DNA from: Shigella phage ESh26
Length of the DNA stretch: 64,000 nt
Sequence record: ON528736
Reading direction: 5' to 3' (one strand)
Shown here: positions 3,933 to 45,275 of the stretch, piece after piece
How positions within the stretch are numbered: the stretch's first letter is position 1
Layout of the letters: each line of letters begins with the position of its first letter
Translations under genes and position numbers: made by a program
The notes under the pieces: model-generated
What the model saw: only the letters and a program-made list of their open reading frames with translations
What the model was told of the DNA's origin: nothing
Databases searched by the model: none

Positions 3933-5027
3933 ATGGCAATTGTTAAAGAAATAACTGCTGATTTAATTAAAAAGTCCGGTGAGAAAATTTCAGCCGGACA
4001 GAGTACTAAATCAGAAGTAGTAACTAAAACATACACTGCCCAGTTTCCAACTGGGCGTGCTAGTGGTAATGACACTACAGGGGACTTCCAGGTAACAGAT
4101 CTATATAAGAATGGATTATTATTTACTGCATACAATATGTCATCTAGGGATTCTGGAAGTCTTAGATCGATGAGATCTAACTACTCTTCTTCATCTTCGA
4201 GTATTTTAAGTACAGCTAGAAACACTATTAGTAGTACAGTATCAAAACTATCAAATGGATTAATATCAAATAACAATTCAGGAACAATAAGTAAAGCTCC
4301 TGTCGCAAACATTCTTTTACCGAGATCTAAATCTGACGTTGATACGTCATCACATAGATTTAACGATGTTCAAGAAAGTCTTATCAGCAGAGGTGGAGGT
4401 ACTGCTACTGGTGTGTTAAGTAATATTGCTTCAACTGCAGTATTTGGGGCACTGGAAAGTATAACACAAGGTATAATGGCTGATAATAATGAACAGATTT
4501 ATACGACAGCCAGAAGTATGTATGGTGGTGCTGAGAATAGAACTAAAGTGTTTACATGGGATTTGACTCCACGTTCAACAGAAGATTTGATGGCTATTAT
4601 TAATATCTATCAATATTTTAACTATTTTTCTTATGGTGAAACGGGCAAATCTCAATATGCTGCTGAAATAAAGGGGTATTTAGATGATTGGTATCGTTCT
4701 ACGTTAATTGAACCTTTATCTCCGGAAGACGCAGCTAAAAATAAAACACTATTTGAGAAAATGACATCGAGTTTAACTAACGTTCTAGTAGTTTCAAACC
4801 CGACAATTTGGATGGTGAAAAACTTTGGTGCAACATCTAAGTTTGATGGAAAAACGGAAATATTTGGCCCATGTCAAATACAGAGCATCAGATTTGATAA
4901 AACACCTAATGGTAACTTTAACGGATTAGCTATTGCTCCAAACCTCCCTAGTACATTTACTCTTGAGATTACTATGAGAGAAATTATCACGTTAAATCGT
5001 GCTTCTTTATATGCGGGGACTTTTTAA
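3933..5027 (+). CDS. 48: Baseplate tail tube cap gp48
   Basis: 364 aa as in T4 gp48; synteny between 29 and 54. Confidence 0.85.
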   Translation: MAIVKEITADLIKKSGEKISAGQSTKSEVVTKTYTAQFPTGRASGNDTTGDFQVTDLYKNGLLFTAYNMSSRDSGSLRSMRSNYSSSSSSILSTARNTISSTVSKLSNGLISNNNSGTISKAPVANILLPRSKSDVDTSSHRFNDVQESLISRGGGTATGVLSNIASTAVFGALESITQGIMADNNEQIYTTARSMYGGAENRTKVFTWDLTPRSTEDLMAIINIYQYFNYFSYGETGKSQYAAEIKGYLDDWYRSTLIEPLSPEDAAKNKTLFEKMTSSLTNVLVVSNPTIWMVKNFGATSKFDGKTEIFGPCQIQSIRFDKTPNGNFNGLAIAPNLPSTFTLEITMREIITLNRASLYAGTF

Positions 5028-34111: not shown

Positions 34112-34119
34112 TATAAATA
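34112..34119 (+). promoter_or_regulatory. Late promoter TATAAATA for gene 34
   Basis: Exact TATAAATA about 35 bp upstream of the gene 34 ATG. Confidence 0.6.
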
Positions 34120-34153: not shown

Positions 34154-37100
34154 ATGGCCGAGATTAAAAGAAAGTTCAGAGCAGAAGATGGTCTGGACGC
34201 AGGTGGCGATAAAATAATCAACGTAGCTTTAGCTGATCGTGCCGTAGGAACTGACGGTGTTAACGTTGATTACCTAATTCAAGAAAATACAGTTCAACAA
34301 TACGATCCAACTCGTGGATATTTAAAAGATTTTGTAATCATTTATGATAACCGCTTTTGGGCTGCTATAAATGATATTCCAAAACCGGCAGGAGCTTTTA
34401 ATAGCGGACGCTGGAGAGCATTACGTACCGATGCTAACTGGATTACAGTCTCATCTGGTTCATATCAATTAAAATCTGGTGAAGCTATTTCGGTTAACAC
34501 TGCAGCTGGTAATGATATTACATTTACTTTACCATCTACTCCAATTGATGGTGATACTATCGTTCTCCAAGATATTGGAGGAAAACCTGGAGTTAACCAA
34601 GTTTTAATTGTAGCTCCAGTGCAAAGTATTGTAAACTTCAGAGGCGAGCAAGTACGTTCAGTACTAATGACTCATCCAAAGTCACAGTTAGTTTTAATTT
34701 TTAGTAATCGTCTGTGGCAAATGTATGTAGCTGATTATAGTAGAGAAGCTGTAGTTGTAACACCAGCGAATACTTATCAAGCGCAATCTAATGATTTTAT
34801 CGTACGTAGATTTACTTCTGCTGCACCGATAAATATTAAACTTCCGAGATTTGCTAATCACGGCGATATTATTAATTTCGTCGATTTGGATAAATTAAAC
34901 CCTCTTTATCATACAATTGTTACGACATATGATGAAACGACATCAGTACAAGAAGATGGAACTCATTCCATTGAAGGCCGTACATCGATTGACGGTTTCT
35001 TGATGTTTGATGATAATGAGAAATTATGGAGATTGTTTGACGGGGACAGTAAAGCACGTTTACGTATCATAACGACTAATTCAAATATTCGTCCAAACGA
35101 AGAAGTTATGGTATTTGGTGCAAATAACGGAACAACTCAAACGATTGAGCTTCAGCTTCCAACTAATATTTCTGTTGGTGATACTGTTAAAATTTCCATG
35201 AATTACATGAGAAAAGGACAAACGGTTAAAATCAAAGCTGCCGGTGAAGATAAAATTGCTTCTTCAGTTCAATTGCTGCAATTCCCAAAACGTTCAGAAT
35301 ATCCACCTGAAGCTGAATGGGTGACTGTCCAAGAATTAGTTTTTAATGGCGAAACTAATTATGTTCCAGTTTTACAACTTGCTTATATAGAAGATTCTGA
35401 TGGAAAATACTGGGTTGTACAACAAAACGTTCCAACCGTAGAAAGAGTTGATTCTTTAAACGATTCTACTAGAGCAAGATTAGGCGTGATTGCTTTAGCT
35501 ACACAAGCGCAAGCTAATGTCGATTTAGAAAATTCTCCACAAAAAGAATTAGCAATTACTCCAGAAACATTAGCTAACCGTACTGCTACAGAAACTCGTA
35601 GAGGTATCGCGAGAATAGCAACTACTGCTCAAGTGAATCAGAACACCACATTCTCTTTTGCTGATGATATTATCATCACTCCTAAAAAGCTGAATGAAAG
35701 AACTGCTACAGAAACTCGTAGAGGTGTTGCTGAAATTGCTACGCAACAGGAAACTAATGCAGGTACTGATGATACTACAATCATCACTCCTAAAAAGCTT
35801 CAAGCTCGACAAGGTTCTGAATCATTATCTGGTATTGTAACCTTTGTATCTACCGCAGGAGCTACTCCAGCTTCTAGTCGTGAATTAAATGGTACAAACG
35901 TTTATAATAAAAACACTAATAATTTAGTTGTTTCGCCTAAAGCACTGGATCAGTATAAAGCTACTCCAACGCAACAAGGTGCAGTAATTTTAGCAGTTGA
36001 AAGTGAAGTAATTGCTGGACAGAGTCAAGAAGGATGGGCAAATGCGGTTGTAACGCCAGAAACGTTACATAAAAAGACATCAACTGATGGAAGAATTGGT
36101 TTAATTGAAATTGCTACGCAAAGTGAAGTTAATACAGGAACTGATTATACTCGTGCAGTCACTCCTAAAACTTTAAATGACCGTAAAGCAACTGAAAGTT
36201 TAAGTGGTATAGCTGAAATTGCTACACAAGTTGAATTCGACGCAGGCGTCGACGATACTCGTATCTCTACACCATTAAAAATTAAAACTAGATTTGATAG
36301 TACTGATCGTACTTCTGTTGTTGCTCTATCTGGATTAGTTGAATCAGGAACTCTCTGGGACCATTATACCCTTAATATTCTTGAAGCAAATGAGACACAG
36401 CGTGGTACACTTCGTGTAGCTACACAGGTTGAAGCTGCTGCAGGAACATTAGATAATGTTTTAATAACTCCTAAAAAGCTTTTAGGTACTAAATCTACCG
36501 AATCGCAGGAAGGTGTTATTAAAGTTGCAACTCAGTCTGAAACTGTAACTGGAGCGTCAGCAAATACTGCTGTATCTCCAAAAAATTTAAAATGGATTGT
36601 ACAGAGTGAACCTACTTGGGCAGCTACTACTGCGATAAGAGGCTTTGTTAAAACTTCATCTGGTTCAATTACATTCGTTGGTAATGATACAGCTGGTTCT
36701 ACGCAGGACTTAGAGCTATACGAGAAAAATAGCTATGCAGTATCACCATATGAATTAAACCGTGTATTAGCAAATTATTTGCCATTAAAAGCAAAAGCTG
36801 CTGATACAAATTTATTGGATGGTCTAGATTCATCTCAGTTCATTCGTAGGGATATTGCACAGACGGTTAATGGTTCACTAACCTTAACCCAACAAACGAA
36901 TCTGAGTGCCCCTCTTGTATCATCTAGTACTGCTACGTTTGGCGGATCAGTTTCGGCAAACAGCACATTAACTATTTCTAATACTGGAACGGCAACTCGT
37001 CTGATTTTTGAGAAAGGACCTCAAACTGGAACTAACCCAGTACAGACGATGACTATCAGAGTTTGGGGAAATCAGTTTGGTGGCGGTTCAGATACAACAC

Positions 37101-38023
37101 GTTCTACTGTATTTGAAGTTGGTGATGAAACGTCTAATCACTTTTATTCTCAACGTAATAAAGCTGGGAATATAACGTTTAGTATCAATGGTACTGTAAT
37201 GCCAATAAATGTTAATGCTTCGGGTTCTTTGAATGCGAACGGCGTTGCAACATTTGGTAGTTCAGTTACAGCCAATGGCGAATTCATCAGCAAGTCTGCA
37301 AATGCTTTCAGAGCAATAAATGGCGATTATGGATTCTTTATTCGCAATGATGCTGCTAACACCTATTTTATGCTTACTGCATCGGGTGATCAGACTGGTG
37401 GATTTAATGGATTACGTCCTTTAGCTATTAATAATGCATCTGGTCAAGTAACGATTGGTGAAAGCTTAATCATTGCCAAAGGTGCTACTATAAATTCAGG
37501 TGGTTTAACTGTTAACTCGAGAATTCGTTCTCAGGGCACTAAAACATCTGACTTATATACCCGTGCTCCAACGTCTGATACTGTAGGATTCTGGTCAATC
37601 GATATTAATGATTCAGCTACTTATAACCAGTTCCCAGGTTATTTTAAAATGGTTGAAAAAACTAATGAAGTGACTGGGCTTCCGTACTTAGAACGTGGCG
37701 AAGAAGTTAAATCTCCTGGTACATTGACTCAGTTTGGTAACACACTTGATTCGCTTTACCAAGATTGGATTACTTATCCAACGACTCCAGAAGCACGTAC
37801 CACTCGCTGGACACGTACATGGCAGAAAACCAAAAACTCTTGGTCGAGTTTTGTTCAGGTATTTGATGGAGGTAACCCTCCTCAGCCGTCTGATATCGGT
37901 GCTTTACCATCTGATAATGCTACAATGGGGAATCTTACTATTCGTGATTTCTTACGAATTGGTAATGTTCGCATTATTCCTGACCCAGTGAATAAAACGG
38001 TTAAATTTGAATGGGTTGAATAA
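34154..38023 (+). CDS. 34: Long tail fibre proximal subunit gp34
   Basis: 1289 aa as in T4 gp34; internal repeats ...TATETRRG.A.IAT... Confidence 0.95.
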   Translation: MAEIKRKFRAEDGLDAGGDKIINVALADRAVGTDGVNVDYLIQENTVQQYDPTRGYLKDFVIIYDNRFWAAINDIPKPAGAFNSGRWRALRTDANWITVSSGSYQLKSGEAISVNTAAGNDITFTLPSTPIDGDTIVLQDIGGKPGVNQVLIVAPVQSIVNFRGEQVRSVLMTHPKSQLVLIFSNRLWQMYVADYSREAVVVTPANTYQAQSNDFIVRRFTSAAPINIKLPRFANHGDIINFVDLDKLNPLYHTIVTTYDETTSVQEDGTHSIEGRTSIDGFLMFDDNEKLWRLFDGDSKARLRIITTNSNIRPNEEVMVFGANNGTTQTIELQLPTNISVGDTVKISMNYMRKGQTVKIKAAGEDKIASSVQLLQFPKRSEYPPEAEWVTVQELVFNGETNYVPVLQLAYIEDSDGKYWVVQQNVPTVERVDSLNDSTRARLGVIALATQAQANVDLENSPQKELAITPETLANRTATETRRGIARIATTAQVNQNTTFSFADDIIITPKKLNERTATETRRGVAEIATQQETNAGTDDTTIITPKKLQARQGSESLSGIVTFVSTAGATPASSRELNGTNVYNKNTNNLVVSPKALDQYKATPTQQGAVILAVESEVIAGQSQEGWANAVVTPETLHKKTSTDGRIGLIEIATQSEVNTGTDYTRAVTPKTLNDRKATESLSGIAEIATQVEFDAGVDDTRISTPLKIKTRFDSTDRTSVVALSGLVESGTLWDHYTLNILEANETQRGTLRVATQVEAAAGTLDNVLITPKKLLGTKSTESQEGVIKVATQSETVTGASANTAVSPKNLKWIVQSEPTWAATTAIRGFVKTSSGSITFVGNDTAGSTQDLELYEKNSYAVSPYELNRVLANYLPLKAKAADTNLLDGLDSSQFIRRDIAQTVNGSLTLTQQTNLSAPLVSSSTATFGGSVSANSTLTISNTGTATRLIFEKGPQTGTNPVQTMTIRVWGNQFGGGSDTTRSTVFEVGDETSNHFYSQRNKAGNITFSINGTVMPINVNASGSLNANGVATFGSSVTANGEFISKSANAFRAINGDYGFFIRNDAANTYFMLTASGDQTGGFNGLRPLAINNASGQVTIGESLIIAKGATINSGGLTVNSRIRSQGTKTSDLYTRAPTSDTVGFWSIDINDSATYNQFPGYFKMVEKTNEVTGLPYLERGEEVKSPGTLTQFGNTLDSLYQDWITYPTTPEARTTRWTRTWQKTKNSWSSFVQVFDGGNPPQPSDIGALPSDNATMGNLTIRDFLRIGNVRIIPDPVNKTVKFEWVE

Positions 38024-38031
38024 GAGGTATT

Positions 38032-39147
38032 ATGGAAAAATTTATGGCAGAGTTTGGACAAGGATATGTCCAAACGCCATTTTTATCGGAAAGTAATTCA
38101 GTAAGATATAAAATAAGTATAGCGGGTTCTTGCCCGCTTTCTACGGCAGGACCATACGTTAAATTTCAGGATAATCCTGTTGGAAGTCAAACATTTAGCG
38201 CAGGACTTCATCTAAGAGTTTTTGACCCTTCCACCGGAGCATTAGTTGATAGTAAGTCATATGCTTTTTCTACTTCAAATGATACTACATCGGCTGCTTT
38301 TGTTAGTTTCATGAATTCTTTGACGAATAACAGACTTGTTGCTATATTAACTAGCGGAAAGGTTAATTTTCCTCCTGAAGTAGTATCTTGGTTAAGAACC
38401 GCAGGAACGTCTGCTTTTCCATCTGATTCTTTGCTGTCAAGATTTGACGTATCATATGCTGCTTTTTACACTTCTTCTAAAAGAGCTATTGCATTAGAAC
38501 ACGTTAAACTAAGTAATAGAAAAAGCACAGATGATTATCAAACTATTTTAGATGTTGTATTTGACAGTTTAGAAGACGTTGGAGCTACCGGGTTTCCAAG
38601 AAGAACATATGAAAGCGTTGAGCAATTTATGTCGGCAGTTGGCGGAACTAATAACGAAATTGCACGTCTACCAACTTCAGCTGCGATAAGTAAATTATCT
38701 GACTATAATTTAATCCCTGGTGATGTTCTTTATCTTAAAGCACAGTTATATGCTGATGCCGATTTACTTGCGCTTGGAACTACAAATATATCTATCCGTT
38801 TTTATAATGCATCGAATGGATATATTTCCTCGACACAAGCTGAGTTTACCGGGCAAGCTGGGTCTTGGGAATTAAAGGAAGATTATGTGGTTGTTCCAGA
38901 AAACGCTGTCGGATTTACGATATATGCACAAAGAACAGCACAAGCTGGCCAAGGTGGCATGAGAAGTTTAAGCTTTTCTGAAGTGTCAAGAAATGGAGGT
39001 ATTTCGAAACCCGCTGAATTTGGCGTCAATGGCATTCGTGTTAATTATATCTGTGAATCTGCTTCACCTCCGGATATAATGGTACTTCCTACACAAGCAT
39101 CGTCTAAAACTGGTAAAGTGTTTGGGCAAGAATTTAGAGAAGTATAA
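38032..39147 (+). CDS. 35: Long tail fibre hinge protein gp35
   Basis: 371 aa (T4 gp35 about 372 aa); synteny. Confidence 0.9.
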   Translation: MEKFMAEFGQGYVQTPFLSESNSVRYKISIAGSCPLSTAGPYVKFQDNPVGSQTFSAGLHLRVFDPSTGALVDSKSYAFSTSNDTTSAAFVSFMNSLTNNRLVAILTSGKVNFPPEVVSWLRTAGTSAFPSDSLLSRFDVSYAAFYTSSKRAIALEHVKLSNRKSTDDYQTILDVVFDSLEDVGATGFPRRTYESVEQFMSAVGGTNNEIARLPTSAAISKLSDYNLIPGDVLYLKAQLYADADLLALGTTNISIRFYNASNGYISSTQAEFTGQAGSWELKEDYVVVPENAVGFTIYAQRTAQAGQGGMRSLSFSEVSRNGGISKPAEFGVNGIRVNYICESASPPDIMVLPTQASSKTGKVFGQEFREV

Positions 39148-39178: not shown

Positions 39179-39186
39179 TATAAATA
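39179..39186 (+). promoter_or_regulatory. Late promoter TATAAATA for gene 36
   Basis: Exact TATAAATA 24 bp upstream of the gene 36 ATG. Confidence 0.6.
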
Positions 39187-39209: not shown

Positions 39210-39875
39210 ATGGCTGATTTAAAAGTAGGTTCAACAACTGGAGGCTCTGTCATTTGGCATCAAGGAAATTTTCCATTGAATCCGGCCGGTGACGATGTAC
39301 TCTATAAATCATTTAAAATATATTCAGAATATAATAAACCACAAGCTGTTGATAACGATTTCGTTTCTAAAGCTAATGGTGGTACTTTTGCGTCAAAGGT
39401 AACATTTAATGCTGGTGTTCAAGTACCATATGCTGTAAACAATACAAACCCGTGCGGTATTTATCCAGGTAATGGCGATGCAGCTACTTTTGCTACAGCA
39501 AATATTGATATTGTTTCATGGTATGGTATTGGTTTTAAATCATCACAGGGTTCAGCAGCCCGAACTGTGGTAATTAACACACGTAATGGTGATATTAGTA
39601 CAAAAGGTGTTGTGTCGGCAGCTGGTCAAGTAAGAAGTGATGCTACTGCTCCTATAGCAGCAAATGACCTTACTAGAAAGGACTATGTTGATGGAGCAAT
39701 AAATACTGTTACGGCAAATGCAAACTCTAGAGTGTTACGATCTGGTGACACTATGACAGGAAACTTAACCGCACCAAACTTTTTCTCGCAGAATCCTGCG
39801 TCTCAACCTTCACACGTTCCGCGATTTGACCAAATCGTAATTAAGGATTCTGTTCAAGATTTCGGCTATTATTAA
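39210..39875 (+). CDS. 36: Long tail fibre distal-proximal connector gp36
   Basis: 221 aa as in T4 gp36. Confidence 0.9.
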   Translation: MADLKVGSTTGGSVIWHQGNFPLNPAGDDVLYKSFKIYSEYNKPQAVDNDFVSKANGGTFASKVTFNAGVQVPYAVNNTNPCGIYPGNGDAATFATANIDIVSWYGIGFKSSQGSAARTVVINTRNGDISTKGVVSAAGQVRSDATAPIAANDLTRKDYVDGAINTVTANANSRVLRSGDTMTGNLTAPNFFSQNPASQPSHVPRFDQIVIKDSVQDFGYY

Positions 39876-39883
39876 GAGGACTT

Positions 39884-42800
39884 ATGGCTACTTTAAAACA
39901 AATACAATTTAAAAGAAGCAAAATCGCAGGTGCACGTCCTGCTGCTTCAGTATTAGCCGAAGGTGAATTGGCTATAAACTTAAAAGATAGAACAATTTTT
40001 ACTAAAGATGATTCAGGAAATATCATTGATTTAAGCATTTCCGCTGGCGGTAATATCAGTGGAAATATCACTCAAACTGGAGATTATTTACAGAACGGTA
40101 CATATAATCTCAATGGAAATCAGTTTGTTTATGCAGGAAAATATATTGAATTTTTACCTAAAACAGCTGGTAATGGTGCATGGGCAAATCAACACCTAAA
40201 TAAAGCTCCTATCTTTACAGATTTGAGCTCAACTACTTCCGTTTCAGAATATCATCCGCTGATTAAACAACGCTATAAAGATGGAACTTTTTCTGTTGGT
40301 ACGTTAGTAAACGAAGGAAGTTTTAAAATTCATTATATCAACGAATCGGGAACTTCAAAATACTGGACATTTCGTAGAGATGGCGGATTTGTTGTTGATA
40401 CAGGAAGTTTGACAGTAACAGATGGAAATATTTCTGCTTCTGGTAATATTAATTCGGCTACTGGGGTAGTTTCTGCTCCGCAAATCAATACAAAGACTAT
40501 AGTATTTGACACAAAAGCATTTGGACAATACGATTCACAATCATTAGTTCAATATGTTTACCCTGGAACTGGTGAAACAAACGGAATCAATTACCTTCGC
40601 AAATTCCGTGCAAAATCTGGTGGTACAATTTATCATGAATTAGCTTCTGCACAAACCGGAAAAAGTGATGAACTTTCTTGGTGGACTGGTAATACAGCGG
40701 TTAATAAACAAATGGGCCTTCGCAATGATGGTTCTTTAGTATTACGACGTTCACTTGCAATTGGTACAATTACAACAGATGAAAACATCAATAACTACGG
40801 CTCCACTGGAGCAATGGGTGAATGCTATATAGTAATTGGAGACGCCGCAACAGGTGTATCATATAAAAGATCTGGTGTATACGATTTAGTTGCTAACGGT
40901 CTTTCTATAGCATCTATTACTCCTGACAGTTTCCGTAGTACTCGTAAAGCGTTATTTGGGCGTTCAGAAGACCAAGGCGGAACGTGGATTATGCCTGGAA
41001 CGAATGCTGCATTTTTATCAGTTCAAACACAGGCTGATGAAAACGCTGCTGGAGACGGCCAGACACATATTGGCTATAACTCAGGCGGAAAAATGAACCA
41101 CTATTTCCGTGGTAAAGGCAAAACTAATATTAATACTCAAGAAGGCATGGAAGTTAACCCGGGTATTCTTAAAATAGTAACCGGTGCAAATAATGTAATG
41201 TTTTATGCTGATGGCGGTATTACATCCACTAAGCAGCTTTCAATATATAATGGTGTATATTTAGCAGCTAATAATTCTACTGCTGGGCTAACATTCGCTC
41301 CAACTACTACAATTGATGGCACTAAGCAAATTTTGTGGGAAGGCGGTACTCGTGCTGGACAGAATAAAAGCTATGTAACTGTTAAAGCGTGGGGTAATTC
41401 ATTTAACGCATCTGGCGATCGTAATCGTGAAACGGTTTTTGAAGTAGCTGACGGACAAGGTTATTATTTTTATGCGCAGCGTGTAGCTCCTGCATCAGGT
41501 TCAACAACTGGAGTAATTCAATTTAGAATTGCTGGAGCATTATTAACCGGTGGGGGTATTACATCATCAGGTTCTATTGTTACTGAGTCAAGTTTAGTTG
41601 CAAATAATGGATTGTCTGTAAATGGACAAGCTAAATTTGGTGGAACAGCAGATGCATTAAGAATTTGGAATGCTGAATACGGTGCTATTTTCCGCCGTTC
41701 GGAAACTAACTTTTATATTATTCCAACTTTACAAAATGCCGGAGAATCGGGCGGTATAAGTAATTTACGCCCATTTACCATCAATCTCGCAAATGGTAGT
41801 GTTATGATGGGCAATCATACACAAGCCGGAAAAAATTTGCTTACTATTGATAACGTATCAAAATTCGTTCAAACCGATGTTAGACTTCGAGTTAATATGG
41901 ATTCTGACGCTATTGTGGTAAATGCTTCTTCTCAAGCAGCGTCTAACTTTATCCAAGGACGTAAGGCTGATGTTACAAAATGGTATTTAGGTATTGGCGA
42001 TGGCGGAAACGTCGTTCGTATGCATAATTACACCTACTCTCACGGTATTGCATTAAACTCTGATACTGTCGATATTACTAAACCTCTTAAAATTAATGAT
42101 ATTCGAATTGGTACAGATGGTAACATCACAGGTGGTACTGGTAATTTTGCCAACTTAAATACAACGTTAAATCGTAAAACCAGCGTGGGCGGTTGGGCTG
42201 GTAGTTCTGTTGACGGATGGTATAAATTTGCTACGGTAACAATTCCTCAGGGTACTGGTACAGTGACTTTTAAGATTTCCGGCGGCGCTGGTTTTAATTT
42301 TAAAAGCTATGGCCAAGCTTCTGTTGCAGAAATAGTTCTTCGCACAGGTAATAATAATCCTAAAGGCATAAACGCTGTACTGTGGAATAGGTCAGACCTG
42401 AGTTTTAATCAGATAGCTACTATGAATACATCTGGCGATACTTATGATGTATACGTGTTCTGTGCCGGTTATACAAATGCATTAGTGGTTGAATATTCCT
42501 GTAGTGAAAACTCTTCAGTAACCGTAGTCGGTCTTAACGGAGGCATTCAGCCAGTTGTTGATGCATTGCCTGAGGGACATGTTGTAGGTAAAACAGTTCG
42601 TCTGTTAAATAATATTGGCGGAACTTTCGCAGCTGGAGAATCTAACATTGTTACTCGCGGTGAATACGTTACTGATAATCAAAAAGGCATGCGTATTAAA
42701 TCTAACGGTAATAATATCGGTTCTAACGCAGCTTTAATTAGAAATGATGGCGGAAGTTTTTATATTTTAGCTACAGATAAAAATACGGAAGAAAAACCCG

Positions 42801-43762
42801 ATGCAGCTAATGGTGATTGGAATGGCTTAAGACCTTTCTCTATTAATATGACTGATGGCCGCGTTGGTATGAACCATGGGTTGAATATTACTGGTGGTGG
42901 ATTAAACGTTACTGGCGGTAATACTAACTTAGGTAATATTAGCTCAAGACTAGTTTCATACGCCCGCGCAGCATCTGGATGGGGAGATACCTCAGATGCC
43001 ATGAAATCTAAAATCACCTTTATGGCAGATCATGGTGATTTATCTAATTCAGGTAGTTATTATCCTATTGTCGGTGCATGGAGTAACTATGGTTCAGCGG
43101 GTTATCGTCAAACCTTTGAGTTCGGATGGGTCGGTTCCGGCACTACAGCGGGTTGGCGCGATGGTATTATTCGTATTCGCGGAGATAATGCTAATGGCCA
43201 GCAAGCAAGATGGCGCTTTACAATGGACGGTACTTTAGATTGCCCTGGTAAAGTACTGCTACCACAAACAGGTGCCTTTGGTGTCAATACATCAAATGGT
43301 CTAGGTGGAAATAGTATAACATTTGGTGATAGCGATACTGGTATTAAGCAAAATGGTGATGGATTATTAGACATATATGCGAACAGCGTACAAGTATTCC
43401 GTTTCCAAAACGGTGATTTGTACTCATACAAAAATATAAATGCTCCAAACGTTTATATTCGTTCTGATATTCGTTTAAAATCCAACTTCAAACCTATCGA
43501 AAATGCGCTTGATAAAGTTGAAAAACTTAACGGTGTCATTTACGATAAAGCTGAATACATCGGTGGAGAGGCAATTGAAACTGAAGCGGGTATTGTGGCT
43601 CAAACGTTGCAAGACGTTTTACCAGAAGCTGTCCGTGAAACAGAAGACAGCAAGGGTAATAAAATACTCACTGTTTCTTCTCAAGCCCAGATTGCTCTTC
43701 TAGTTGAAGCTGTGAAAACACTTTCTTCTCGTGTAAAAGAACTTGAATCTAAACTTATGTAA
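39884..43762 (+). CDS. 37: Long tail fibre distal subunit gp37 (T2-type) with C-terminal intramolecular-chaperone-like domain
   Basis: 1292 aa; C-terminal about 100 aa begins with SDIRLKSN (S74-like motif) and ends in a coiled-coil-like segment. Confidence 0.9.
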   Translation: MATLKQIQFKRSKIAGARPAASVLAEGELAINLKDRTIFTKDDSGNIIDLSISAGGNISGNITQTGDYLQNGTYNLNGNQFVYAGKYIEFLPKTAGNGAWANQHLNKAPIFTDLSSTTSVSEYHPLIKQRYKDGTFSVGTLVNEGSFKIHYINESGTSKYWTFRRDGGFVVDTGSLTVTDGNISASGNINSATGVVSAPQINTKTIVFDTKAFGQYDSQSLVQYVYPGTGETNGINYLRKFRAKSGGTIYHELASAQTGKSDELSWWTGNTAVNKQMGLRNDGSLVLRRSLAIGTITTDENINNYGSTGAMGECYIVIGDAATGVSYKRSGVYDLVANGLSIASITPDSFRSTRKALFGRSEDQGGTWIMPGTNAAFLSVQTQADENAAGDGQTHIGYNSGGKMNHYFRGKGKTNINTQEGMEVNPGILKIVTGANNVMFYADGGITSTKQLSIYNGVYLAANNSTAGLTFAPTTTIDGTKQILWEGGTRAGQNKSYVTVKAWGNSFNASGDRNRETVFEVADGQGYYFYAQRVAPASGSTTGVIQFRIAGALLTGGGITSSGSIVTESSLVANNGLSVNGQAKFGGTADALRIWNAEYGAIFRRSETNFYIIPTLQNAGESGGISNLRPFTINLANGSVMMGNHTQAGKNLLTIDNVSKFVQTDVRLRVNMDSDAIVVNASSQAASNFIQGRKADVTKWYLGIGDGGNVVRMHNYTYSHGIALNSDTVDITKPLKINDIRIGTDGNITGGTGNFANLNTTLNRKTSVGGWAGSSVDGWYKFATVTIPQGTGTVTFKISGGAGFNFKSYGQASVAEIVLRTGNNNPKGINAVLWNRSDLSFNQIATMNTSGDTYDVYVFCAGYTNALVVEYSCSENSSVTVVGLNGGIQPVVDALPEGHVVGKTVRLLNNIGGTFAAGESNIVTRGEYVTDNQKGMRIKSNGNNIGSNAALIRNDGGSFYILATDKNTEEKPDAANGDWNGLRPFSINMTDGRVGMNHGLNITGGGLNVTGGNTNLGNISSRLVSYARAASGWGDTSDAMKSKITFMADHGDLSNSGSYYPIVGAWSNYGSAGYRQTFEFGWVGSGTTAGWRDGIIRIRGDNANGQQARWRFTMDGTLDCPGKVLLPQTGAFGVNTSNGLGGNSITFGDSDTGIKQNGDGLLDIYANSVQVFRFQNGDLYSYKNINAPNVYIRSDIRLKSNFKPIENALDKVEKLNGVIYDKAEYIGGEAIETEAGIVAQTLQDVLPEAVRETEDSKGNKILTVSSQAQIALLVEAVKTLSSRVKELESKLM

Positions 43763-43792
43763 AAGAGGGCTTCGGCCCTCTAAGGATTTTTA

Positions 43793-44587
43793 ATGGCAAT
43801 TGTAGGTGTTCCTGGCTGGATTGGTGAATCTGCCGTGAATGAAACTGGACAACGTTGGATGGATGCTGCGATGAGAGCAGTTCGTGTTTCAGTTCCTGGT
43901 TGGATGAGCTCAATGGCCGGACAATCTAAAGAAGTATATTACAGCATTGGTGCTAGCAATTCTTATAATAAAGACACACTAATAAATTATCTCAAATCTC
44001 AAGGTAGTACTCCTGTTGTTGTTACTATTACTGGTAACTTAGTTTCTTCATCTGCCGGGCAACCTTGCTTAGATTTTCCTAGTTCATTAACTAATGCTTA
44101 TGTAACGCTTATTATAAATGGCGGTGTAACAGTATATGGTCGCGGAGGACGCGGCGCGCAAGCGGGAAACCAGGCGGGTGAAGCTGGTGGTACTGCAATT
44201 AACAATGGTATAGGTACTCGTCTACGAATCACTAACAATGGAGCGATTGCTGGCGGCGGTGGCGGCGGTGGCGCCCAATCAACTGATAATGGATGGGGAG
44301 GTAAATATGTTTCTGGCGGCGGCGGCGGACGTCCTTTCGGAGCTGGTGGTAATAATGGAGCAAAAGCTCCGGGTGCATCAGCATCTTTAACATCTCCAGG
44401 CGCAGGCGGAAAAATGTATTCCGGCGTTGGATACTACGGTGGTGACGGTGGTAATGTTGGTGAACGAGGTAAGGATGCGGTTAGATTGAACGGCTATTCG
44501 AACTCACCTGGCGCAGCAGGTAAAGCTGTTACTGGTAATGCTCCAACTTGGACTAAAGTTGGTACAATATATGGTGCAAGAGTATAA
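43793..44587 (+). CDS. 38: Tail fibre tip adhesin gp38 (T2-type, glycine-rich motifs)
   Basis: 264 aa; N-terminus MAIVGVPGWIGESAVNETGQRWM; poly-Gly runs separated by variable segments. Confidence 0.85.
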   Translation: MAIVGVPGWIGESAVNETGQRWMDAAMRAVRVSVPGWMSSMAGQSKEVYYSIGASNSYNKDTLINYLKSQGSTPVVVTITGNLVSSSAGQPCLDFPSSLTNAYVTLIINGGVTVYGRGGRGAQAGNQAGEAGGTAINNGIGTRLRITNNGAIAGGGGGGGAQSTDNGWGGKYVSGGGGGRPFGAGGNNGAKAPGASASLTSPGAGGKMYSGVGYYGGDGGNVGERGKDAVRLNGYSNSPGAAGKAVTGNAPTWTKVGTIYGARV

Positions 44588-44618
44588 TTTTGAATAAATA
44601 TCCTTAAAAGGAGGGTCT

Positions 44619-45275
44619 ATGGCAGCACCTAGAATATCATTTTCGCCCTCTGATATTCTGTTTGGTGTTCTAGATCGCTTGTTCAAAGATAACGCTACCG
44701 GGAAAGTTCTTGCTTCCCGGGTAGCTGTCGTAATTCTTTTGTTTATAATGGCGATTGTTTGGTATAGGGGAGATAGTTTCTTTGAGTACTATAAGCAATC
44801 AAAGTATGAAACATACAGTGAAATTATTGAAAAGGAAAGAAATGCACGCTTTGAATCTGTCGCCCTGGAACAACTCCAGATAGTTCATATATCATCTGAG
44901 GCAGACTTTAGTGCGGTGTATTCTTTCCGCCCTAAAAACTTAAACTATTTTGTTGATATTATAGCATATGAAGGAAAATTACCTTCAACAATAAGTGAAA
45001 AATCACTTGGAGGATATCCTGTTGATAAAACTATGGATGAATATGCAGTTCATTTAAATGGACGTCATTATTATTCCGACTCAAAATTTGCTTTTTTACC
45101 AACCAAAAAGCCTACTCCCGAAATAAATTACATGTACAGTTGTCCATATTTCAATTTGGATAATATCTATGCTGGAACAATAACCATGTACTGGTATAGA
45201 AATGATCATATAAGTAATGACCGCCTTGAATCAATATGTGCTCAGGCGGCCAGAATATTAGGAAGGGCTAAATAA
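44619..45275 (+). CDS. t: Holin T
   Basis: 218 aa; single N-terminal TM segment with large periplasmic domain; matches T4 holin as recalled. Confidence 0.9.
   Translation: MAAPRISFSPSDILFGVLDRLFKDNATGKVLASRVAVVILLFIMAIVWYRGDSFFEYYKQSKYETYSEIIEKERNARFESVALEQLQIVHISSEADFSAVYSFRPKNLNYFVDIIAYEGKLPSTISEKSLGGYPVDKTMDEYAVHLNGRHYYSDSKFAFLPTKKPTPEINYMYSCPYFNLDNIYAGTITMYWYRNDHISNDRLESICAQAARILGRAK

Follow-up and report, generated by a model that had tools for sequence, protein, structure and literature searches.

Which kind of protein is encoded by gene 38 of Shigella phage ESh26, which receptor would this protein recognise, and how has this allele of the gene been put together? The gene lies in a stretch of 64,000 nucleotides (nt) of the phage (sequence record ON528736), the whole of which is called the window here. 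The explanation that accounts best for the evidence, to which we give a probability of about 0.85, is that the gene product (gp38) is a tail-fibre adhesin of the type found in phage T2, that it is directed to the outer-membrane porin OmpC, and that it is encoded by a mosaic allele.

Gene 38 is an open reading frame (ORF) that starts with ATG, occupies 43793-44587 on the + strand (stop codon 44585-44587) and encodes 264 amino acids (aa), beginning with MAIVGVPGWIGESAVNETGQRWM. An earlier reading of this DNA from its letters (the original prediction) had given the same length and N-terminus, which match the ORF listing of the window exactly, and had called the protein a T2-type adhesin. This assignment is nearly certain, as the matches in Pfam, PHROG and the PDB are all to the adhesin family. 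The Pfam model PF05268 (GP38, 'Phage tail fibre adhesin Gp38') is matched over its full length by aa 47-264 (E 8e-73), PF21721 (Gp38_N, 'Gp38 N-terminal domain') is matched by aa 1-42 (E 8.3e-18, above the curated cut-off), and the PHROG match is phrog_2056, 'tail fiber protein; host specificity' (E 7e-102). The best PDB matches are the two solved gp38 adhesins: that of phage PP01 (9v85_A, the receptor-binding domain as a GFP fusion; aa 39-264, E 1.9e-55) and that of phage S16 (6f45_D; aa 8-262, E 7.7e-46). The N-terminal domain, the order of the glycine-rich motifs (GRMs) and hypervariable segments (HVSs), the C-terminal motif, the homology to solved structures (at the level of sequence) and the gene context are likewise those of the adhesin family. 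Judged by its sequence the protein is of the ime09/KRT47/Sf22 subtype, and by analogy it would be situated at the tip of the fibre and serve in adsorption.

The layout of the protein was determined by aligning it with nine references (10 sequences) and, separately, by aligning 14 mutually divergent gp38s (<90% identity), including loci from IMG/VR. The parts of the gene are given below; the boundaries between GRMs and HVSs are approximate.

43793-43918, + strand: N-terminal gp37-attachment domain, aa 1-42 (Pfam PF21721)
43919-44131, + strand: middle region, aa 43-113, which by alignment to the gp38s of PP01 and S16 corresponds to the solved homologues' beta-helix domain
44132-44155, + strand: GRM1 (VYGRGGRG), aa 114-121
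44156-44182, + strand: HVS1 (AQAGNQAGE), aa 122-130, a trough of conservation
44183-44272, + strand: GRM2, aa 131-160, ending in a run of seven glycines (Gly7)
44273-44314, + strand: HVS2 (AQSTDNGWGGKYVS), aa 161-174, the lowest conservation in the gene
44315-44350, + strand: GRM3 (GGGGGRPFGAGG), aa 175-186, starting with a run of five glycines (Gly5)
44351-44440, + strand: HVS3, aa 187-216
44441-44470, + strand: GRM4 (GDGGNVGERG), aa 217-226
44471-44509, + strand: HVS4 (KDAVRLNGYSNSP), aa 227-239, a trough of conservation
44510-44584, + strand: GRM5 (aa 240-248) and the conserved C-terminal motif (aa 249-264, NAPTWTKVGTIYGARV), by alignment

This layout agrees with the published scheme of five GRMs and four HVSs [Trojet et al. 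2011, PMC3157838]. The attachment domain (aa 1-42) is 98-100% identical to those of T2, IME339 and Lutter, and 45% identical to those of PP01 and S16. In GRM1, G116, R117, G118, G119 and G121 are invariant in both the 10- and the 14-sequence alignment. Among the 10 sequences, the invariant positions of GRM2 are G132, G133, I136, N138, G141, L144, R145, I146, N148, G150, I152 and G154-G160, and those of GRM3 are G175-G179, R180, P181 and G183, GRM3 being 92% identical to every reference. G217, G219, G220, G223 and G226 are invariant in GRM4, as are G243, A245, V246, G248, P251, W253, V256, G257, I259 and G261 in GRM5 and the C-terminal motif. By comparison, the segment from aa 220 to aa 242 has no more than 52% identity to the references from other subtypes.

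The two glycine runs named in the original prediction are present, GGGGGGG at aa 154-160 and GGGGG at aa 175-179, and so are the GGC/GGT repeats that it had placed at about 44260-44330: the first run is encoded at 44252-44272 (GGC GGC GGT GGC GGC GGT GGC) and the second at 44315-44329 (GGC GGC GGC GGC GGA), and a repeat search pairs 44247-44274 with 44310-44328, thereby joining both tracts. Glycine makes up 22.7% of gp38 and 31.8% of its C-terminal 151 residues (aa 114-264), and the part of the gene that codes for these residues (gene nt 340-792) has a G+C content of 52.5%, as against 35.9% for the whole window. Two further ORFs overlap this glycine-rich part, one of 53 aa (44232-44393, - strand) and one of 50 aa (44238-44390, + strand, in another frame); most likely they are by-products of the G+C-rich glycine codons rather than genes.

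The crystal structure of PP01 gp38 has a beta-helix domain and a polyglycine-II sandwich from which five loops (A-E) protrude (PMC12892980), and the gp38 of the window would, from its sequence, be expected to fold in the same way. Loop A of PP01 aligns with aa 122-127 (in HVS1, where Lutter has an insertion of 6 aa), loop B with aa 164-173 (in HVS2), loops C and D with aa 187-192 and aa 207-214 (in HVS3, the latter with an insertion of 2 aa), and loop E with aa 230-236 (in HVS4). Because loops A-E map onto the HVSs in this way, the glycine runs would make up the core of the structure, with the variable segments as the exposed loops. The original prediction had described the runs as separating short variable segments that contact the receptor; the arrangement is borne out by the alignments, whereas the idea of the runs as mere spacers is not, since in the solved homologues they are the polyglycine-II helices of the core (PMC12892980).

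The closest relatives of the protein are very similar to it. Twelve of the 761 matching records in the phage collection have at least 95% protein identity, some of them being GenBank and RefSeq copies of one phage, and a query with the single protein found 19 IMG/VR loci with gp38 homologues. KRT47 and ECP2301 differ from the window by R28K only and ime09 by A262S only (99.6% identity in each case), Sf22 by G89R and A262S, CrRp10 by R28K, G167R and A262S, SA21RB by five substitutions and SP21535 by six. The region of aa 90-261, which includes all four HVSs, is identical in the window, KRT47 and Sf22, and aa 29-264 are identical in the window and KRT47. Across the subtype, substitutions are found in each of the four HVSs, at codons 130 (44180), 167 (44291), 191 (44363-44364) and 233 (44490). 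E130Q, K191A and N233S (the last at the tip of loop E) occur in SA21RB and SP21535, and G167R (loop B) only in CrRp10, a phage of Citrobacter rodentium, where it may be an adaptation to the host. Far more distant are the gp38 homologues on three IMG/VR contigs of 151-225 kb (L023, L026 and L027), with 58-65% identity; their tblastn regions, of 929-991 nt, are longer than expected, and two of them have unusual N-termini (LSVSATPGWI).

What the loops would bind is predicted from these identities, and OmpC is the likely primary receptor. Two papers that cite Tinney 2022 (PMC12892980, PMC11654681) report that KRT47 and Sf22 require OmpC and that mutations in loop 5 or loop 7 of ompC impair adsorption; since all the loops of the window's gp38 are identical to those of these two adhesins (within aa 29-264 for KRT47 and aa 90-261 for Sf22), the same receptor is predicted for it. 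Further support, independent of the first, comes from PP01, which binds OmpC and which is, among the references of known receptor, the nearest in HVS2 and HVS3: HVS2 is 50% identical to that of PP01 and 0-21% identical to those of T2, T6, IME339, Lutter and S16, and the region of HVS3 (aa 187-219) is 67% identical to PP01 and 27-33% identical to the other references. Of the PP01 residues that matter for OmpC-dependent infection, several are kept in the window (Y209 as Y214, Y230 as Y235, K168 as K171 and Y169 as Y172). Comparison with known adhesins, which the original prediction had recommended for finding the receptor, thus indicates OmpC.

Some observations weigh against OmpC or limit the prediction. 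Y159 and A228, which matter for the infectivity of PP01, are replaced by Q162 and N233 in the window, and loop E, the main determinant in PP01, differs (VRLNGYS vs NPGAGYS). It may therefore be that the mode of binding, or the variant of OmpC that is recognised, is not that of PP01, and a difference in the OmpC variant is probable. The dependence of KRT47 and Sf22 on OmpC was shown on Shigella and is taken here from the citing papers (PMC12892980, PMC11654681). Finally, the supplements of a receptor-screen preprint of 2026 do not mention ime09, KRT47, Sf22, CrRp10 or PP01, so the subtype of the window was apparently absent from that screen.

The alternative that survives best is a T2-type adhesin whose primary receptor in the natural host is another molecule, such as OmpA, OmpF, Tsx, FadL or lipopolysaccharide. 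Receptor use can be switched by a single substitution in an HVS, as by Q206L in RB51/RB68 (from OmpF to OmpW), loop E and the positions of Y159 and A228 are not conserved with PP01, and the hosts of relatives that share this adhesin are E. coli, four species of Shigella and Citrobacter rodentium. Set against this are the identity of aa 90-261, with all four HVSs, to the OmpC-dependent KRT47 and Sf22, and the low identity (only 0-33%) that the HVSs have to their counterparts in T2 (FadL) and in the Tsx-type T6 and IME339. A receptor other than OmpC is therefore unlikely, and OmpC is retained as the predicted receptor.

Gene 38 of the window is mosaic in structure. In its product, the first 113 aa are 75-90% identical to those of T2 and IME339 and 41% identical to those of PP01, and blastn homology to PP01 starts at 44204 and runs onward from there. 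Blastn homology to IME339 breaks off at 44273 and is found again from 44510. The clearest case is that of the Shigella phages SH-1 and SH-2 (gp38 at 4010-4798 of loci L034 and L035), in which the locus from g37 through g38 to t is 96.4-96.6% identical to that of the window over its whole length (blastn), or, by megablast, 98.5-98.6% identical across the aligned 96%. Codons 1-160 encode the same protein with nearly the same DNA, whereas HVS2 to HVS4 are of the Lutter type; there are 45 aa differences, all of them in aa 161-239 apart from A262S. In SH-1 the DNA of the gene equals that of the window over 43793-44244, is of the Lutter type from 44274 to about 44515, and from there on agrees with the window at every site but 44576. 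The upstream junction in SH-1 and SH-2 thus falls at 44249-44273, within or at the Gly7 tract, and the downstream junction in GRM5, at about 44516. HVS1 of the window type is thus found paired with two sets of HVS2-HVS4, SH-1 and SH-2 being natural chimeras within the domain.

The original prediction had regarded the variable segments as recombination hot-spots, and natural chimeras with junctions at the Gly7 tract and GRM5 (SH-1/SH-2 and IME339) support this. In the published model, exchange takes place between conserved motifs (PMC3157838), and the results from the window reproduce it. In the laboratory crosses of Trojet et al. none of 14 chimeras (0/14) showed recombination between GRM1 and GRM5 (PMC3157838), so natural junctions inside the domain are of some interest. 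Also, six of the eight nt differences between the window and ime09 lie in 44245-44320 (P about 7e-4 by simulation, for a span chosen post hoc).

Perhaps the tract that encodes Gly7 (44252-44272) is a preferred point of crossover, at which HVS1 reassorts independently of the HVS2-HVS4 cassette, but this suggestion is tentative and rather doubtful. If it is true, the phage of the window and SH-1/SH-2 would be a natural near-isogenic pair, with the same type of gp37 and the same gp38 codons 1-160 but with different HVS2-HVS4, and with it receptor switching could be mapped cleanly. Several counts speak against a special status of the glycine tracts. Third positions in the glycine runs are not more often polymorphic (7/12) than those of other glycine codons (22/48). 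Across the 14 divergent subtypes, third-position identity is 0.44 in the glycine runs and 0.42 in other invariant glycine codons, and it is 0.46 in invariant A, V, P and T codons, so the DNA of the glycine tracts has no extra conservation. The use of the glycine runs as crossover sites may simply reflect conservation of the protein. Two related ideas were rejected on the same kinds of counts. The runs had appeared to be mutation hot-spots when compared with all third positions (5/7 vs 63/257, p = 0.014), an excess that is gone when the comparison is with other glycine codons (22/48); and selection of the tracts as homology for recombination would call for extra synonymous conservation, which is absent (0.44 vs 0.42 vs 0.46).

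The original prediction had also suggested that the GGC/GGT repeats could drive slippage. Were the tracts a slippage-prone contingency locus, the adhesin would be diversified or switched by frameshifts or by changes in glycine number. The tract does contain a perfect tandem repeat, (TGGCGGCGG)x2.6 at 44251-44273 with 100% matches (Tandem Repeats Finder), and the synonymous order of GGC and GGT is a different one in nearly all close relatives (the ten genes have seven haplotypes). However, all ten close relatives have exactly 7 and 5 glycines, and the idea of slippage is left without support by this constancy. The perfect 9-nt repeat is found only in the allele of the window and in IME339; the nearest alleles are without it, and in the closest relatives the seven glycines are encoded by other orders of GGC and GGT. 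Among 27 homologues the runs vary only between 7 and 9 and between 4 and 5 glycines, with the extra glycines falling where HVS2 begins. T6 does not tolerate the loss of GRM2, GRM3 or GRM4 by deletion (Trojet et al., PMC3157838), and, as described above, polymorphism at the third positions of the runs is no higher than at those of other glycine codons. Slippage as a source of diversity here is thus very improbable.

The phage of the window is a Tequatrovirus, the first 20 kb of the window being 97-98.5% identical to several deposited phages; no deposited record identical to the window was found. Gene 38 lies in the canonical T-even fibre module, g34-g35-g36-g37-g38-t-asiA, with asiA on the other strand. 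The neighbouring genes and elements are as follows.

34112-34119, + strand: exact TATAAATA upstream of g34
34154-38023: gp34
38032-39147: gp35
39179-39186, + strand: T4-type late promoter consensus TATAAATA, an exact match upstream of g36
39210-39875: gp36
39884-43762, + strand: gene 37, encoding the 1292-aa distal half-fibre subunit that carries gp38 (Pfam gp37_trimer, Gp34_trimer, Peptidase_S74)
43463-43759, + strand: C-terminal intramolecular chaperone domain of gp37, aa 1194-1292
43764-43781, + strand: UUCG-tetraloop hairpin between g37 and g38, AGAGGGC-UUCG-GCCCUCU (-13.4 kcal/mol, z = -2.1)
44592-44599: AATAAATA, a 7/8 variant of the late promoter between g38 and t
44619-45275: holin t (Phage_holin_T, E 1.9e-117)

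In gp37, Pfam PF13884 (Peptidase_S74) is matched by aa 1194-1251 (E 3.5e-15), and the chaperone domain is presumed, by analogy, to be auto-cleaved at an S-D-I-R-L-K motif. The C-terminal 292 aa of gp37 match the tip of S16 gp37 (6f45_A, E 2.6e-11). A segment in the N-terminal third of gp37 (40073-40513) is without a blastn match in KRT47, ime09 and IME339 and is present in CrRp10, SH-1, SH-2 and Lutter; this patchy distribution indicates that gp37 is mosaic independently of gp38. The Shine-Dalgarno sequence of gene 38 (AAGGA) is directly 3' of the intergenic hairpin. The hairpin is kept in PP01, T6, S16 and T4, with compensatory changes in the stem, and this conservation suggests a functional RNA element, e.g., for stabilisation of mRNA or as an attenuator. 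The match at 39179-39186 is the sole exact one to TATAAATA on the + strand between g35 and g38, and a scan of the + strand of the window found no such consensus directly upstream of g38; therefore, g38 is probably read from the late transcript of g36, with g36, g37 and g38 co-transcribed from the promoter at 39179, by analogy with T4.

How an adhesin of this kind would act can be pictured in a series of steps. The N-terminal 42 residues of gp38 would dock on the tip of gp37, a tip which would be exposed once the C-terminal chaperone domain had been cleaved off. The five glycine-rich motifs would fold as a sandwich of polyglycine-II helices, forming a rigid core, and the four HVSs would be displayed as five loops on the distal face of this core, where they would contact the outer-membrane porin (in the case of OmpC, loops 5 and 7 on the extracellular side being the probable points of contact). 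As to the make-up of the allele, a T2/IME339-like N-terminal half is joined to a specificity domain related to that of PP01, and relatives show that the HVS2-HVS4 block is swapped as a unit, presumably through recombination in the flanking conserved DNA of the glycine motifs.

In T4, gp38 is a tail-fibre assembly chaperone and is not a component of the virion. That the gp38 of the window is such a chaperone is vanishingly improbable: although its gene is in the same slot as T4 gene 38, between g37 and t, and the records of ime09, SA21RB and teqsoen name a near-identical protein 'distal long tail fiber assembly catalyst', it has 264 aa rather than 183, none of its Pfam, PHROG or PDB matches is of the T4 chaperone kind, the gp37 of the window carries its own intramolecular chaperone domain, and a direct BLASTP comparison with T4 gp38 (183 aa, from NC_000866) gave E = 0.8, its best segment having 4 matches in 6 residues. 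On this comparison, which the original prediction had named as the one that could overturn its assignment, the chaperone was dropped at the level of sequence and the T2-type adhesin stands. The RefSeq note for T4 (NC_000866) itself states that the 'gp38' of the T2 subfamily is unrelated to T4 gp38 and is an adhesin. The locus records of ime09 (4180-4974) and SA21RB (101-895) give the adhesin the name of T4 gp38, and the label is a misannotation spread by transfer on the basis of similarity.

The gene is thus of an ordinary and already characterised kind, and all of these findings match published knowledge: the modular layout of GRMs and HVSs was described between 1987 and 2011, the fold was determined in 2018 and a second time in 2026, the prediction of receptors from gp38 similarity and phylogeny was published in 2025-2026, and cassette exchange is also in the literature. 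The practical consequence is that the use of OmpC can be predicted from the sequence of gene 38, together with a host range that takes in Shigella, E. coli and possibly Citrobacter, as for KRT47, Sf22 and CrRp10, which is of use in the choice or engineering of therapeutic phages. Only the comparison of the window with SH-1 and SH-2 is of some small value, since it documents a natural swap of the HVS2-HVS4 cassette with a junction in the Gly7 tract.

Among the known systems, T4 gp38 shares with the protein of the window only the gene name and position; its sequence is unrelated. The gp38 of S16 (PDB 6F45), the first polyglycine-II sandwich adhesin to be solved and grouped with KRT47/Sf22 and PP01 among the OmpC-binding gp38s, is homologous over aa 8-262, with the same order of GRMs and a homologous gp37 tip, but it is only 47% identical, has a shorter HVS2 and HVS4, and comes from a different genus (Gelderlandvirus). 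The OmpC-binding gp38 of PP01 (9V85), a phage of E. coli O157, has the same domain plan, 62% identity over aa 114-264 and related loops B, C and D; it differs in its N-terminal 113 aa (41% identity), which are of another gp37-docking type, and in loop E; loop D of the window is longer by 2 aa, and Y159 and A228 of PP01 have become Q and N. The gp38 of T2, which is the prototype of the family and binds FadL/OmpF, has an N-terminal attachment domain that is 98% identical and the same architecture and gene context, with an overall identity of 57.5% by tblastn or 65% in the multiple alignment; its HVS2 and HVS3 are only 21% and 33% identical, and therefore a different receptor is expected. Closest of all are the adhesins of KRT47, Sf22 and ime09 (Tequatrovirus ime09 / sf22), in which the length of 264 aa, all GRMs and HVSs, the g37-g38-t context and the intergenic hairpin are the same as in the window, and which differ from it by 8-15 mostly synonymous nt changes (near the Gly7 run in the case of ime09) and, in KRT47 and ime09, by a gp37 without blastn homology to 40073-40513.

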